DNA from: a virus
Lineage: Duplodnaviria > Heunggongvirae > Uroviricota > Caudoviricetes
Direction: 5' to 3' (one strand)
IMG/VR virus record: IMGVR_UViG_2537561992_000019
Length of the DNA stretch: 17,225 nucleotides
Position 1 is the first letter of the stretch. The number at the start of each line of letters is the position of its first letter. The position numbers and the translations under genes were made by a program. The notes under the pieces are model-generated. The model was not told the origin of the DNA, searched no databases, and saw only the letters and a list, made by a program, of their open reading frames with translations. This document shows positions 535-4,182 of this stretch, piece after piece.

Positions 535-630
535 AAGAAATGAAAAAAGGCCACGCAGTTGCGCAGCCTGATAAACCCTGGTTAAAATCCACACGATAAC
601 AACACAACAATATCAGTATCTCATGCTATT

Positions 631-655
631 GCCCGAACCCATTCGGGCATTTTTT
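631..655 (+). terminator. rho-independent terminator-like hairpin (GCCCGAA-CCCA-TTCGGGC followed by T6)
   Basis: GC-rich stem with T-run on the plus strand; forms a back-to-back pair with the minus-strand hairpin at 661..684. Confidence 0.45.
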
Positions 656-660
656 ACCCA

Positions 661-684
661 TAAAAAGCCCCTCCGGAGAGGGGC
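661..684 (-). terminator. rho-independent terminator-like hairpin (GCCCCTC-TCCG-GAGGGGC followed by U5 on the minus strand)
   Basis: A-run 662..666 on plus gives the U-tract on minus; sits downstream of the TerB-like/membrane gene pair. Confidence 0.5.
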
Positions 685-808
685 ATGTTTGCATGCACAT
701 TCTTTTTCTTGTATGGTGCCGGGTGCCTCCCGGTGAATTCAGTATCAGCACCTAAATCCGCGATTATCCCATATACCTGGTTGCTGATCGCCCTCCGCAC
801 AGGGGGAT

Positions 809-1018
809 TCACCATGCAGAAGTGTTTTTAATAAACAGCAAACAAAAAAACCAAGCATTATGCAGGCTGTTTCTTTTTATCACCGGCCACAGCAATACCA
901 CAATGCCGCAGACCAGCACCCCATCCGCCAGCACCGACATGATTCTGCTGGTGAAATCCACCATCACCACCAGAAACAGCAGGAGTGCAGCCACAGCCAG
1001 GCGCAGTTTTACCGTCAC
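809..1018 (-). CDS. small predicted membrane protein, 69 aa, two hydrophobic helices
   Basis: GTG at 1018..1016 overlaps the TerB-like stop (GTGA). Hydrophobic stretches LRLAVAALLLFLVVMV and GVLVCGIVVLLWPVI. Alternative ATG start at 964. Could be a non-coding tail. Confidence 0.35.
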   Translation of the reverse strand: MTVKLRLAVAALLLFLVVMVDFTSRIMSVLADGVLVCGIVVLLWPVIKRNSLHNAWFFCLLFIKNTSAW

Positions 1019-1446
1019 AGGTGATTCTCCAGACGAAGACCCAGAACACCGGCAATCTCTTCCAGCACCTTGCGCTCTTCCGGCTCAATTTCGCCGTCTG
1101 CCTCCGCAATGGCCACCGCCACATCCAGCACATCTTCCGCTTCACGCGCATCGTGTTTCACATCCTCAATCTCGCGTAACGCGGCACGACGACCAATTTT
1201 AAAATTGGTATCCAGCTGACCGATAATAGTTGCGCTAATCGCATTAATTTCCGAGGTAAACGCAGACAACGCAGGCTGATTACGTAAGACCTGTTCGATC
1301 TTCGCTTTCTCGGATGCCTCGCATTCACCATCTGCATAGGCCACCAGGTATGCAGCGTTAATCACCGCCTGTGCCAGATCGCGTTTCTCAAACTTTTTAA
1401 TTTCCGCTGCCGCTCTGCGGGTTTTCTTTTTGAAGATTCCAAACAT
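1015..1446 (-). CDS. TerB-like (tellurite-resistance TerB family) protein, 143 aa
   Basis: True start is ATG at 1446..1444 (MFGIFKKK) with AAGGAA Shine-Dalgarno; the track ORF begins further upstream. Two ADG-x3-E style motifs (AYADGECEASEKAK, AEADGEIEPEERK) typical of TerB domains. Confidence 0.65.
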   Translation of the reverse strand: MFGIFKKKTRRAAAEIKKFEKRDLAQAVINAAYLVAYADGECEASEKAKIEQVLRNQPALSAFTSEINAISATIIGQLDTNFKIGRRAALREIEDVKHDAREAEDVLDVAVAIAEADGEIEPEERKVLEEIAGVLGLRLENHL

Positions 1447-1575
1447 CGTGACGTTCCTTTGGGTGGGTGAGCCAACGCCCGGGAGCGATCTGCCCACAGA
1501 GAAAGTCACACTGACCACTCCGTAAGCTCACCCCCGAAAGGCTCTGTGGTTGATATGCGCCGGGCGTGGCGCAGA

Positions 1576-1602
1576 TACAAAAAAGGCCCGCCGAAGCGAG
1601 CC
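1576..1602 (-). terminator. rho-independent terminator after the tRNA pair
   Basis: Minus-strand RNA GGCUCGC-UUCG-GCGGGCC (7-bp stem with one G-U pair, UUCG tetraloop) followed by U6. Confidence 0.6.
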
Positions 1603-1615
1603 TGGAAAATAAGTG

Positions 1616-1692
1616 TGGCGCGTTGTAGTGGAGTCGAACCACTGACCGATTGCTTAGAAGGCAATTGCTCTGTCCGGCTGAGCTAACAACGC
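1616..1692 (-). tRNA. tRNA-Arg (anticodon UCU), 77 nt, phage-encoded
   Basis: Hand-folded cloverleaf: 7-bp acceptor stem GCGTTGT/ACAACGC, anticodon loop CTTCTAA, T-arm GTGG-TTCGACT-CCAC, encoded CCA end. Confidence 0.9.
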
Positions 1693-1792
1693 AGAATACC
1701 GATAATGGACCGCCATCGGGGACCCGCCCCCGCACCAACAACCCTGTTATGGTGTCGTCTGCTCTTCCTGATAAGCTAATGGCGGTTTGTGA

Positions 1793-1868
1793 TGGTGGCC
1801 CTTGCTGGATTTGAACCAGCGACCTGGCGATTATGAGTCGCTCGCTCTCACCACTGAGCTAAAGGGCC
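1793..1868 (-). tRNA. tRNA with CAU anticodon, 76 nt (Ile2/lysidine type by recalled similarity to E. coli ileX; Met not excluded)
   Basis: Acceptor stem GGCCCTT/AAGGGCC, anticodon loop CTCATAA, T-arm GCTGG-TTCAAAT-CCAGC, encoded CCA end. Confidence 0.85.
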
Positions 1869-1917
1869 GGGAGCAGAATAATAATGGTGCGTAATTAATT
1901 CTGCAATCTCATCCGTT

Positions 1918-2967
1918 TCAAACGATTAAATCCTGAACTTCCCTGACTGTCTGTTCAAAGCGTCCGGTCTCCAGCTCAACACCAATCGCACAACGCCCCA
2001 GTGCCATCGCCGCTTTTACCGTTGAACCTGAACCCATAAAAAAATCTGCAACCAGGTCTCCCGGACGACTGCTCGCGTTGATTATCTGCTGCAGCATTTC
2101 TGCCGGTTTTTCGCACGGATGTTTCCCTGGATAGTACTGCACCGGTTTATGCGTCCAGACATCGGTGTACGGAACCTGCGCCGTCACACCGAAATACCGC
2201 CGCAAATTTTTATATTCACTCAGCAGTTCCGTATACTGCCGGTTCAGCTCACTGTATGTGCTGACCAGCTGGTGGTGTGGCTTTTCCAGTTCCCCGCGCT
2301 GATGTTTTTCTGCCGCAACACGCGCAAACAACGCCTGCAATTTGTTGTAATCACCCTCGTTCGGTAACTGCCACTGACTGATACCAAACCAGTGCGAAGC
2401 CATGTTTTTCTTTCCGGTGGCTTCCGCTATCTGTTTTGACGTTATTCCCAGTGATTTACGCGCATCACGAAAGTAAGAAATCAGCGGGGCCATGACGTGC
2501 TGTTTTAGCTCGCGCCCCTGCTCCACATAGCCATCATCTTTCGGGCGATACGGTCCCTGATAATGTTCTGCAAACAGAATGCGCTCTGTTGCCGGAAAAT
2601 ACGCCCGCAGACTTTCCTTATTGCACCCGTTCCAGCGTCCGGACGGCTTCGCCCAGATAATGTGGTTCAGCACATTAAAGCGCTCACGCATCATGATTTC
2701 GGTGTCAGATGCCAGGCGATGACCACAGAACAGGTAAAGACTTCCGGCAGGCTTCAGTACCCGCCAGAACTGCGCCAGACACTGGTCCAGCCATTTCAGG
2801 TAATCATCGTCGCCCTCCCACTGGTTATCCCAGCCCTCGGGCTTCACTTTAAAGTATGGCGGGTCTGTGACTATCAGATCGACAGAGTTTTCCGGTAAGG
2901 TCTGGATAAATTCCAGGCAATCAGCGTTGATTAACTCACAACTGGATATTTTTACAGTATTAATCAT
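1918..2967 (-). CDS. orphan DNA methyltransferase, beta-class (N6-adenine or N4-cytosine), 349 aa
   Basis: DPPY catalytic motif near the N-terminus (LIVTDPPYF) and AdoMet-binding motif FFMGSGST near the C-terminus. No restriction endonuclease gene adjacent. Confidence 0.85.
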   Translation of the reverse strand: MINTVKISSCELINADCLEFIQTLPENSVDLIVTDPPYFKVKPEGWDNQWEGDDDYLKWLDQCLAQFWRVLKPAGSLYLFCGHRLASDTEIMMRERFNVLNHIIWAKPSGRWNGCNKESLRAYFPATERILFAEHYQGPYRPKDDGYVEQGRELKQHVMAPLISYFRDARKSLGITSKQIAEATGKKNMASHWFGISQWQLPNEGDYNKLQALFARVAAEKHQRGELEKPHHQLVSTYSELNRQYTELLSEYKNLRRYFGVTAQVPYTDVWTHKPVQYYPGKHPCEKPAEMLQQIINASSRPGDLVADFFMGSGSTVKAAMALGRCAIGVELETGRFEQTVREVQDLIV

Positions 2968-3117
2968 AGATCAATAAGCACTTCTCTGATAGGCTCATGC
3001 CGCTTTTGCGCAAAGCAGATGGGCCTGAGGTTTGCTTGTGACCCCAACGCATGAGCAGATGGCTGGCAGGTGCCGCTAACACCCACCAGCCGCCCATTAC
3101 CACAAATTAAAAAGCCT

Positions 3118-3315
3118 TCACTGCGGAAGGCGTCTGTAACAACCGAACTGATAATCTGCCAGACCCGCCATAACAAGCTGAGTCAGTATTAACTGGCAGC
3201 GTTCGCGTGAAAGGTAAGTATTCTGCGCAATTTCCCCGACGGTCGCCGGTTCGGTGACGCTTAATTCATTAAACACCACTCTGGCGGTTTCGGTCATATC
3301 CTGCTGTTTTAGCAT
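3118..3315 (-). CDS. small putative helix-turn-helix DNA-binding protein, 65 aa
   Basis: ATG at 3315..3313 (MLKQQDMTE); HTH-like stretch ATVGEIAQNTYLSRERCQLILTQL. The track ORF starts upstream but runs through the terminator hairpin. Confidence 0.4.
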   Translation of the reverse strand: MLKQQDMTETARVVFNELSVTEPATVGEIAQNTYLSRERCQLILTQLVMAGLADYQFGCYRRLPQ

Positions 3316-3435
3316 GCCTTTTTCCCTTTTCTGGTTAACGTGACATACCAATACCTCTTGTCGAAAAAGCCAGCAAGCTGAAAGACCAGTATTCACAACT
3401 ACCAGCGCGTTTAATGTTCTGTGCCGTTTTTCAGG

Positions 3436-3462
3436 CATAAAAAAACCCGCATAAAGCGGGTT
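3436..3462 (-). terminator. tR'-like rho-independent terminator downstream of the putative Q gene
   Basis: Minus-strand hairpin AACCCGC-UUUAU-GCGGGUU followed by U7; about 190 nt downstream of the Q stop. Confidence 0.6.
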
Positions 3463-3627
3463 CTTTCAGGTGTCCATGTCTGCTATTCGCCTCGCGGTAC
3501 AGCTTTGCGAAGCGTAGCTGGATTGAAACAGTTTATGGCTAAAAATACAAGCTTTTTTTCTAAAACTGCACAAACCTTACTACCAGCCAAAAATCCTCTT
3601 CGTGCAACAACAAACGCCCTCCAGATT

Positions 3628-4182
3628 CTAAGCGTCAGTAAAAGAAAATGCATCTCGCATCAGTGGATACAGAATAAACTCAGCTATTCTCAGCCACATA
3701 TCTATACGATTGCGGCATGTTGCATAGCACCACTCAGGGTGAACCTCATTCAACAATTCAGCCATTTTGCGTTTACTCATCCCCCGCCCTTCGTATCTTT
3801 GCCGCAGGATATCAATCAATCCAGGATAACGTGCAAGCGCTTTACTTATCACCCCATCAATGCGTAACGCCTCTGCATCAGTACAGTGAGACAACCAGCT
3901 CTTCTGTCTGCCAGCGATCATCTCTCGCAAGAATGCTTCCAGCTCTGGTTTATCAATCCCTGACTCCCTGATTCTACGCAGGGCTTCATTGATTGCGGTT
4001 TTTGTCAGTTTTTTGGATGCCAGCAACTGATTGAACATATTTCCTGTTTTGCTACCACCTATATACGACCAACGCCCCCACATCCGTAATTTCCCCTGGA
4101 TCCAGACGGCTTCCAGCGTTTTTAGACGTAAATGCTCGCCGCTTTTGCCTGTAATTTCCGGGTATATCATATTTACGATCAC
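3628..4182 (-). CDS. putative late-gene antiterminator Q, 184 aa (GTG 4182) or 180 aa (ATG 4170)
   Basis: Assigned by position only: directly after rusA and directly before a strong terminator and the late-region island. No motif confirmed. Confidence 0.45.
   Translation of the reverse strand: MIVNMIYPEITGKSGEHLRLKTLEAVWIQGKLRMWGRWSYIGGSKTGNMFNQLLASKKLTKTAINEALRRIRESGIDKPELEAFLREMIAGRQKSWLSHCTDAEALRIDGVISKALARYPGLIDILRQRYEGRGMSKRKMAELLNEVHPEWCYATCRNRIDMWLRIAEFILYPLMRDAFSFTDA

Follow-up and report, generated by a model that had tools for sequence, protein, structure and literature searches.

What does a DNA methyltransferase without a restriction partner do in a lambdoid prophage, and what decides when it is made? 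The question is raised by the 17,225-nucleotide (nt) viral sequence IMGVR_UViG_2537561992_000019 (hereafter the window, that is, the whole stretch to which all coordinates refer), which is 100% identical to a lambdoid prophage in Escherichia coli O26 and other strains. All features that bear on the finding lie on the minus strand, where the 5′ to 3′ order is a Q gene, a strong terminator, a gene for a 65-amino-acid (aa) winged-helix protein, the methylase gene, tRNA-Ile2, tRNA-Arg and a further terminator. An original prediction had seen in this region an orphan methylase that is expressed late and protects progeny DNA, with a small helix-turn-helix (HTH) gene as a possible controller. The explanation that we favour, and to which we give a probability of about 0.7, is that the methylase is an M.EcoGII-type enzyme made from a Q-dependent late operon, that it serves in anti-restriction, and that a leader in its mRNA adds a further control. 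The identity to M.EcoGII, the gene order, the terminator and the conservation and pairing of the leader were computed directly here; the non-specific activity, the silence in the lysogen and the slow growth and instability of constitutive clones are taken from the literature on the family.

Identity of the methylase

The methylase open reading frame (ORF) matches the Pfam family N6_N4_Mtase over residues 29-340 (E = 2.6e-44). The catalytic motif DPPY (residues 35-38, nt 2865-2854) comes first and the S-adenosylmethionine (SAM) motif FMGSG (residues 310-314, nt 2040-2026) last, with the recognition domain in the centre, which is the beta-class order. The assignment to the beta class from DPPY and FxGxG, as originally made, is therefore borne out, and both motifs are intact, without the inactivating mutation that had been named as a possible refutation. 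The absence of a restriction partner holds as well: no restriction endonuclease gene is annotated across 30 kb of the identical prophage (in E. coli E2865).

Over the full length, 316 of 350 residues (~90%; E = 0.0) are identical to M.EcoGII, a 349-aa, beta-class, prophage-encoded enzyme of E. coli O104:H4 C227-11 (Murray et al. 2018, PMC5778455). M.EcoGII methylates adenine in any context and so blocks many restriction enzymes; in linearised plasmid, up to 99% of the adenines are modified. The lysogen does not express it, and clones with constitutive expression grow slowly and are unstable (PMC5778455). The same paper names phage 1720a-02 as the bearer of a very similar enzyme (PMC5778455), and this phage also has the cassette of the window, in the same gene order and with a DNA identity of 88%. 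The window enzyme thus shares with M.EcoGII and M.EcoGI a length of 349 aa, the motif order, the status of a prophage-borne orphan and ~90% identity. The window allele is ~33 substitutions apart from M.EcoGII, whose biochemistry is published; the published work on M.EcoGII does not describe a native upstream leader or winged-helix gene. Judged by this similarity, the methylase is a member of the M.EcoGI/M.EcoGII family and not a new or uncharacterised orphan, so that the "orphan methylase" is already explained by a known family and is ordinary as an enzyme. It is predicted to act on adenine (N6) in essentially any sequence context. Because it is ~90% identical to a non-specific adenine methyltransferase, the lack of a methylation motif, once named as a refutation, would be the expected positive result.

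A different view would be that the methylase is a sequence-specific orphan serving phage regulation (for example in packaging, in replication or in gene expression, as with P1 Dmt or CcrM) instead of anti-restriction. Many phage orphan methylases have such roles (EcoSal review), and a few substitutions in the recognition domain can change specificity. Moreover, M.EcoGII is not among the solved structures, and the nearest by sequence, at about 25 bits per domain, are other beta-class enzymes that are site-specific (RsrI, CcrM and MboIIA among them). Against this, the identity of 90% holds over the full length and is to an enzyme whose non-specificity has been demonstrated; ancestors reconstructed deep within the M.EcoGII clade likewise lack specificity, and M.PflMI, the closest relative that is site-specific, falls outside the clade. 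Furthermore, single-molecule real-time (SMRT) sequencing studies assigned no defined motif to family homologues: those of STEC O111 (E. coli producing Shiga toxin), at ~93% similarity, are entered as "nonspecific", and in the strains concerned no methylation that would match was detected. We regard a regulatory orphan as highly improbable. A Stx (Shiga toxin)-phage "rRNA methyltransferase" with a two-subunit holoenzyme (Gong et al., PMC10810198) was also considered as a relative and rejected, being an unrelated DPPW, MT-A70 enzyme encoded by gene gp5 in another phage region.

Position in the late operon

Upstream of the winged-helix gene and the methylase lies a gene for a Q-type late antiterminator (Pfam DUF1133, E = 4.7e-101; Phage_antitermQ, E = 1.5e-06), followed by a 160-nt spacer with a strong intrinsic terminator at its end. 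The 3′ end of this candidate tR′ (GAACCCGCUUUAUGCGGGUUUUUUU, 3441-3467) is 187 nt past the Q stop codon; the sequence folds at -20.3 kcal/mol (z -6.6), and none of 200 shuffles was as stable. The earlier claim of a 65-aa HTH gene behind a tR′-like terminator, for which no strand had been stated, is thereby confirmed on the minus strand, the HTH being a winged helix. In late-operon order the lysis genes come after the tRNAs, as judged from the sequence and the prophage annotation.

This placement recurs. Among 44 loci with a close methylase homologue, drawn from species-representative genomes, 40 show a Q-like gene no more than 3 kb upstream and on the same strand; queries from at least three Pfam Q families served to find these genes. 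The conserved placement behind Q and a terminator supports Q-dependent late expression, and we infer that the methylase is expressed in this way. The outline of the original prediction, a late-expressed enzyme protecting progeny DNA, thus stands by virtue of the Q/terminator placement and the identity to M.EcoGII, except that the enzyme is not a new orphan and that the anti-restriction role has already been proposed for the M.EcoGII family (Murray 2018, PMC5778455; EcoSal review). Late expression with broad anti-restriction is the best reading of the methylase.

Two non-coding stretches lie between Q and the winged-helix gene. The first (3437-3542), which ends in the tR′-like terminator, may be a short constitutive pR′-tR′ transcript. 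It shows sub-threshold Rfam similarity to isrK (21.6 bits, over the full model length) and AgrB (27.1 bits); an identity with either RNA was rejected, as the scores are far below gathering and the matches cover mostly the terminator. The second is a conserved block upstream of the winged-helix start codon (~3330-3390; CTTGCTGG...GACAAGAG.TAT.GGTATGTCA), which is common to E. coli, Klebsiella and Buttiauxella and could be a promoter, an operator or an element of the 5′ untranslated region.

A conserved leader upstream of the methylase

The spacer of 150 nt between the winged-helix gene and the methylase is better conserved than the genes themselves and holds an element that the original prediction missed, namely a structured non-coding leader. 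A leader homologue precedes the methylase in 42 of the 44 loci, those without the winged-helix gene included. Likewise, in 118 of 120 viral contigs with a 21-nt leader motif a methylase start follows at a nearly fixed distance (exactly 73 nt in 112 of them), the other two being a truncated leader and a chance match. A viral-contig scan by protein alignment gave only relatives at least 90% identical and so adds no diversity. Pairwise identity in the leader core averages 0.83, against 0.84 at codon positions 1 and 2 and 0.47 at position 3 of the adjacent gene; that is, the leader is as conserved as the non-synonymous sites of the methylase.

This conservation is not that of a coding sequence. 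Leaders are 126-134 nt long, no frame is open in all sequences, and the two window ORFs that overlap the leader (47 aa at 2960-3103 and 70 aa at 2964-3176) were discarded, as their frames are not kept. About half of the leaders have a seven-codon upstream ORF with tandem Trp codons (ATG GGC GGC TGG TGG GTG TTG TAG, encoding MGGWWVL; 3096-3073, minus strand), which overlaps the 5′ strands of helices P1 and P2 and whose window version extends to 47 aa. Rfam 15 returned no match with E ≤ 1 for the region 2968-3117. The methylase start has no ordinary Shine-Dalgarno sequence. In nearly all leaders, a Dam site (GATC, 2972-2969 on the minus strand) stands one base ahead of the start codon, inside the conserved sequence TGATC(T/C)ATG, and UGAUC is complementary to the 3′ end of 16S rRNA.

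A secondary structure of the leader drawn by hand agrees with the alignments, 94.6-95.5% of the cells being paired. In an unfitted MAFFT alignment, 94.6% of the cells are paired in the three-way junction fold, versus 27-44% when the partner is slid, and one pair is seen as C-G, U-A and A-U with zero mismatches. A covariance model built from this alignment picks up very divergent copies of the leader, one in Pseudocitrobacter with 46 bits and one on a Vibrio plasmid with 44 bits, both upstream of methylases at 56-58% identity. When these divergent copies are included, in an alignment fitted to the covariance model, double-sided changes are found in 24 of 33 pairs, and none of 500 shuffles reaches the observed score.

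RNAalifold favours an alternative fold, in which the 13 nt ahead of the AUG are engaged by the 3′ half of P3. Its pairability is 93.7% and its covariation weak (19 of 500 shuffles are as high); in seven of eight sequences tested, the window included, its stability exceeds that of the three-way junction by 1-8 kcal/mol. A pseudoknot between the apical loop of P3 and the initiation region was tried and dropped, being no better than shuffles (mean z -1.1). A two-state leader, hiding or exposing the initiation region, is therefore plausible from its pairing, and by analogy with the Mu com-mom operon the leader probably sets whether the methylase message is translated. We tentatively suggest, at somewhat less than even odds, that the leader represents a previously undescribed class of cis-regulatory RNA for M.EcoGII-type enzymes, with two states that would gate translation of an enzyme lethal when produced too early, operated maybe by the winged-helix protein or by a ligand such as SAM or S-adenosylhomocysteine. 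The leader RNA may be the sole part of the locus that is new.

The same spacer could also act as a DNA-level site, or give rise, as a template, to an antisense RNA repressing the methylase in the manner of type I toxin-antitoxin systems, and not act as an mRNA leader in cis. The toxicity of the enzyme would suit antisense control; the helix sequences themselves are strongly conserved, and the helices pair alike on either strand (95.5% versus 95.4%). The scan of the plus strand over 2968-3117, however, found no promoter- or terminator-like signals, and the distance of the element from the start codon and its orientation towards it are fixed. Moreover, compensatory changes keep the hairpins and not a linear motif, even in two very divergent copies (L057 and L066). 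These observations make a DNA site or antisense template unlikely compared with a leader acting in cis.

Two decayed copies of the leader region were also seen: in L005 (5198-5478) the leader and the first 45 methylase codons are retained beside an intact winged-helix gene, and in L221 (~1300-1450) the leader is truncated after P4, without a methylase downstream.

The winged-helix gene

The 65-aa ORF is truly coding, its identity among 27 homologues being 0.81 at codon positions 1 and 2 versus 0.51 at position 3. The protein belongs to phrog_331 (E = 1.4e-37), labelled "unknown function" in PHROG, and its AlphaFold2 (AF2) model has the order H1-b-H2-H3-wing with a predicted local distance difference test (pLDDT) score of 90.9. 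Foldseek returned only generic winged-helix domains (best E = 2.6e-3), among them those of IclR and MarR regulators, dimerisation domains of O-methyltransferases, and SelB. No Pfam match to Xre or HTH_3 was obtained for the protein, the TrmB winged helix was below threshold (E = 0.0026; 18 bits against a cut-off of 25.6), and a scan with NCBIfam gave nothing above the cut-offs.

There are 334 close homologues (E ≤ 0.001), and the named ones among the 120 matches listed are all from Enterobacterales. The gene takes the same place, ~150 nt ahead of the methylase, in Klebsiella, Salmonella and Buttiauxella. In Rosenbergiella it keeps this place although the protein is only 37-39% identical, the methylase there being 72% identical. 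Such long-term linkage suggests, from the gene order, some functional tie to the methylase. On the other hand, the gene is absent upstream of the methylase in 17 of the 44 genome loci and in 40 of 113 viral contigs that keep methylase and leader, and in loci without it a terminator hairpin directly precedes the leader. Because it is missing from many loci that keep the methylase, the protein is dispensable: it is a frequent and long-standing yet dispensable partner of the methylase. In three loci (L020 ~2646-2849, L029 ~2649-2849 and L046 2651-2851) a variant with ~53-55% identity was observed, which keeps the N-terminus and the GRCQLILTQLVMAGLA helix and differs in the middle and the C-terminus.

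The persistence of the pair in Rosenbergiella, the position of the gene immediately upstream of the methylase on the same strand and the conserved non-coding block before its start codon would all suit a controller (C) protein of the restriction-modification type, binding an operator to time or limit methylase transcription. As in the window, C proteins such as C.PvuII and C.AhdI are encoded by a small DNA-binding-type gene directly upstream of a restriction-modification component. These, however, are Xre-type HTH proteins of ~80 aa that regulate a restriction gene via C-boxes, whereas the window protein has a generic winged-helix fold without Xre/HTH_3 similarity, has no restriction gene nearby to regulate, and is often absent; a hairpin and 150 nt also separate it from the methylase. 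The proposal that the HTH gene is a controller is thus not upheld in the restriction-modification sense, which we consider quite improbable, slightly more so than the antisense or DNA-site view of the leader.

Relation to the com-mom system of phage Mu

In phage Mu, Com is the translational activator of mom, a toxic late anti-restriction modification gene whose transcription depends on the Mu C protein and Dam. Like the window locus, com-mom combines a small gene and a structured RNA at the start site ahead of a toxic, late, broad-spectrum DNA-modification function. The parts differ: the small protein of Mu is a zinc ribbon and that of the window a winged helix, the Mu enzyme is Mom and that of the window a SAM methyltransferase, and the window would use Q antitermination for its transcription. 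The Com zinc-ribbon family (PF10122) was not found in the window by the Pfam scan.

Distant relatives of the methylase bring the two systems closer. In five loci at 38-57% identity (Shewanella, Acinetobacter, an unclassified gammaproteobacterium and two from Vibrio), a small zinc-ribbon ORF stands immediately upstream of the methylase start and overlaps it in four. Three of these ORFs (L060, L063 and L070) pass Pfam Zn_ribbon_Com (PF10122) with 33.8-48.0 bits against a cut-off of 22.9, and the Com-like ORFs of the two Vibrio loci, L059 and L066, score below it. In L066 (Vibrio sinus), the leader homologue lies upstream of the Com-like ORF and not between this ORF and the methylase. In Mu-like prophages, alpha-class non-specific methylases replace mom behind com (Drozdz et al. 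2012, PMC3299994). Of these, Hia5, Hin1523 and Nma1821 are, like the window enzyme, phage-borne and nearly non-specific for N6-methyladenine, occupy the slot of an anti-restriction gene, and are silent in the lysogen (PMC3299994); they differ from it in being alpha-class, with reversed motif order and unrelated sequence, and in residing in Mu-like and not lambdoid prophages. Moreover, a recent review (EcoSal) sets Mom beside M.EcoGII, both being toxic and both silent in lysogens. The presence of a Com-like gene in the leader's position in distant relatives suggests, by analogy, com-mom-like translational control of the window methylase. The M.EcoGII-type family would thus repeatedly fill the "mom slot" under dedicated post-transcriptional control, for which the leader, with or without the winged-helix gene, is the candidate in Enterobacterales.

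Taken further, the winged-helix protein could be a non-homologous analogue of Com, which would bind the leader RNA and shift it from the fold that hides initiation to the three-way junction and so turn late translation on. The architecture (a gene for a small nucleic-acid-binding protein, a structured RNA and a toxic modification gene) is that of com-mom, Com-like ORFs fill the same slot in the distant relatives, and two alternative leader folds exist; in addition, some winged-helix domains bind RNA hairpins, and SelB is among the structural matches. By contrast, more than a third of the loci retain the leader without a winged-helix gene nearby, and the V. sinus leader is on the wrong side of the Com-like ORF for this scheme. 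Only four leader columns differ (p < 0.01) between loci with and without the gene, in a comparison confounded by phylogeny. We therefore consider a Com-like role of the winged-helix protein doubtful, if better placed than a restriction-modification controller.

The favoured explanation and points against it

Taken together, what we infer is a dependence on Q, a role in anti-restriction in vivo and a regulatory part for the leader; the mechanism that we favour would run as follows. In the late operon of a lambdoid prophage, which would depend on Q, the methylase would stand second. Without modification of RNA polymerase by Q, transcripts begun at pR′ would halt at the strong terminator (3441-3467), which would leave the methylase off in the lysogen, where the enzyme would be harmful. 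Made only after induction, it would hypermethylate replicating phage DNA, and the packaged genomes could then withstand many adenine-methylation-sensitive restriction systems in the next host. As a likely second layer of control, the leader of ~130 nt would take up either the three-way junction or the alternative fold, in which the 13 nt ahead of the AUG are paired, and would probably set in this way whether the message is translated, much as the translation-inhibitory structure of Mu com-mom does.

Several points weigh against this explanation. Promoter scans found no convincing sigma-70 pR′ between Q and the terminator (no site with at least 9 of 12 matches), the best candidate being the weak TTGTAT-17-(TG)TTCAAT at 3550-3522, and the conserved block at ~3330-3390 could be an independent promoter. 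The timing of methylase expression at this locus is read from the sequence. As to the enzyme, the M.EcoGII sequence used for comparison is that printed in the SUPREM paper (PMC11551740, supplementary file 5), machine-read from the PDF with a few reading errors; many of the ~33 substitutions lie in the central region, and non-specificity is deduced at 90% identity. In vivo anti-restriction by the family is assumed, rather than demonstrated, in the literature found. Concerning the leader, few positions vary among these closely related sequences, and the covariation depends on them; the richest counts come from the fitted alignment. Moreover, the wobble counts, 44 G-U versus 42 A-C, do not distinguish the folding strand and were set aside as uninformative.

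The shared cassette and its surroundings

The winged-helix gene, the methylase and the two tRNA genes form a cassette (1568-3450) that is 80-91% identical in phiP27, 1720a-02 and many Stx2a/c/d phages. Homology with Stx phages of other Q types begins inside the terminator, at 3450, and stops at 1568. Phage phiP27 has a like cassette (L23, L24, ileZ, argO) directly upstream of stx2e, behind a Q gene of another family than that of the window. In place of the stx genes of Stx phages, the window prophage has a TerB-family gene and a DUF3927 gene after the tRNAs (1015-1518, minus strand, and downstream); a SASA/NanS-p-type esterase and the lysis genes come next. Two prophage small RNAs score above the Rfam gathering threshold downstream of the TerB and DUF3927 genes, AgvB (anti-GcvB; 96.5 bits) and STnc100 (125.7 bits), at 594-655 (plus strand) and 656-846 (minus strand). 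The coordinates of all features of the locus are collected in Table 1.

Table 1. Features of the methylase locus, with the Com-like ORFs of distant relatives in the last row (coordinates there are those of the respective loci)
Feature	Position	Strand	Basis or remark
Q-type late antiterminator gene	3628..4182 (RefSeq start 4170)	-	Pfam DUF1133, Phage_antitermQ; DUF1133 family in identical prophage
Region expected to hold pR′ and short pR′-tR′ transcript	3468..3550	-	Weak promoter-like site alone
Strong intrinsic terminator, candidate tR′	3441..3467	-	Hairpin and U7
65-aa winged-helix protein gene, PHROG 331	3118..3315	-	Coding signal, AF2, Foldseek
Weak terminator-like hairpin over winged-helix stop codon	3114..3131	-	Terminator scan; -9.2 kcal/mol, z -1.2
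Conserved structured non-coding leader of methylase	2968..3098	-	Conservation, pairing
P1	3096-3092/3024-3020	-	Closes three-way junction
P2 and apical stem	3091-3086/3066-3061	-	Junction hairpin
P3	3059-3054/3036-3031	-	Junction hairpin
P4	3018-3012/3006-3000	-	Hairpin after junction
Translation-initiation region	2980-2968	-	13 nt before AUG
M.EcoGII-family beta-class N6-adenine DNA methyltransferase gene, 349 aa	1918..2967	-	Pfam N6_N4_Mtase, identity
tRNA-Ile2 (anticodon CAT; ileZ-like)	1793..1868	-	ARAGORN; annotated as tRNA-Ile / ileZ in RefSeq and phiP27
tRNA-Arg (TCT; argO-like), last gene of shared cassette	1616..1692	-	ARAGORN, phiP27 comparison
Terminator after tRNA-Arg	1584-1603	-	Scan
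Com-like ORFs	L059 2865-3026; L060 ~2858-3004; L063 2865-3050; L070 2820-3008; L066 2835-2945		Hosts outside Enterobacterales

Significance

M.EcoGII is a widely used reagent, and we found no published account of how the phage controls it so that it is harmless in the lysogen and used at lysis. The locus shows how such a gene is natively arranged: it follows Q and tR′, has rare-codon tRNAs as neighbours and, in Stx phages, stands immediately before the toxin genes. The leader RNA and the small winged-helix protein are candidate control parts for the methylase. If the leader is a switch, it would be a compact natural off-switch for a toxic methylase, and it would be a second answer, reached independently, to the problem for which Mu has Com.

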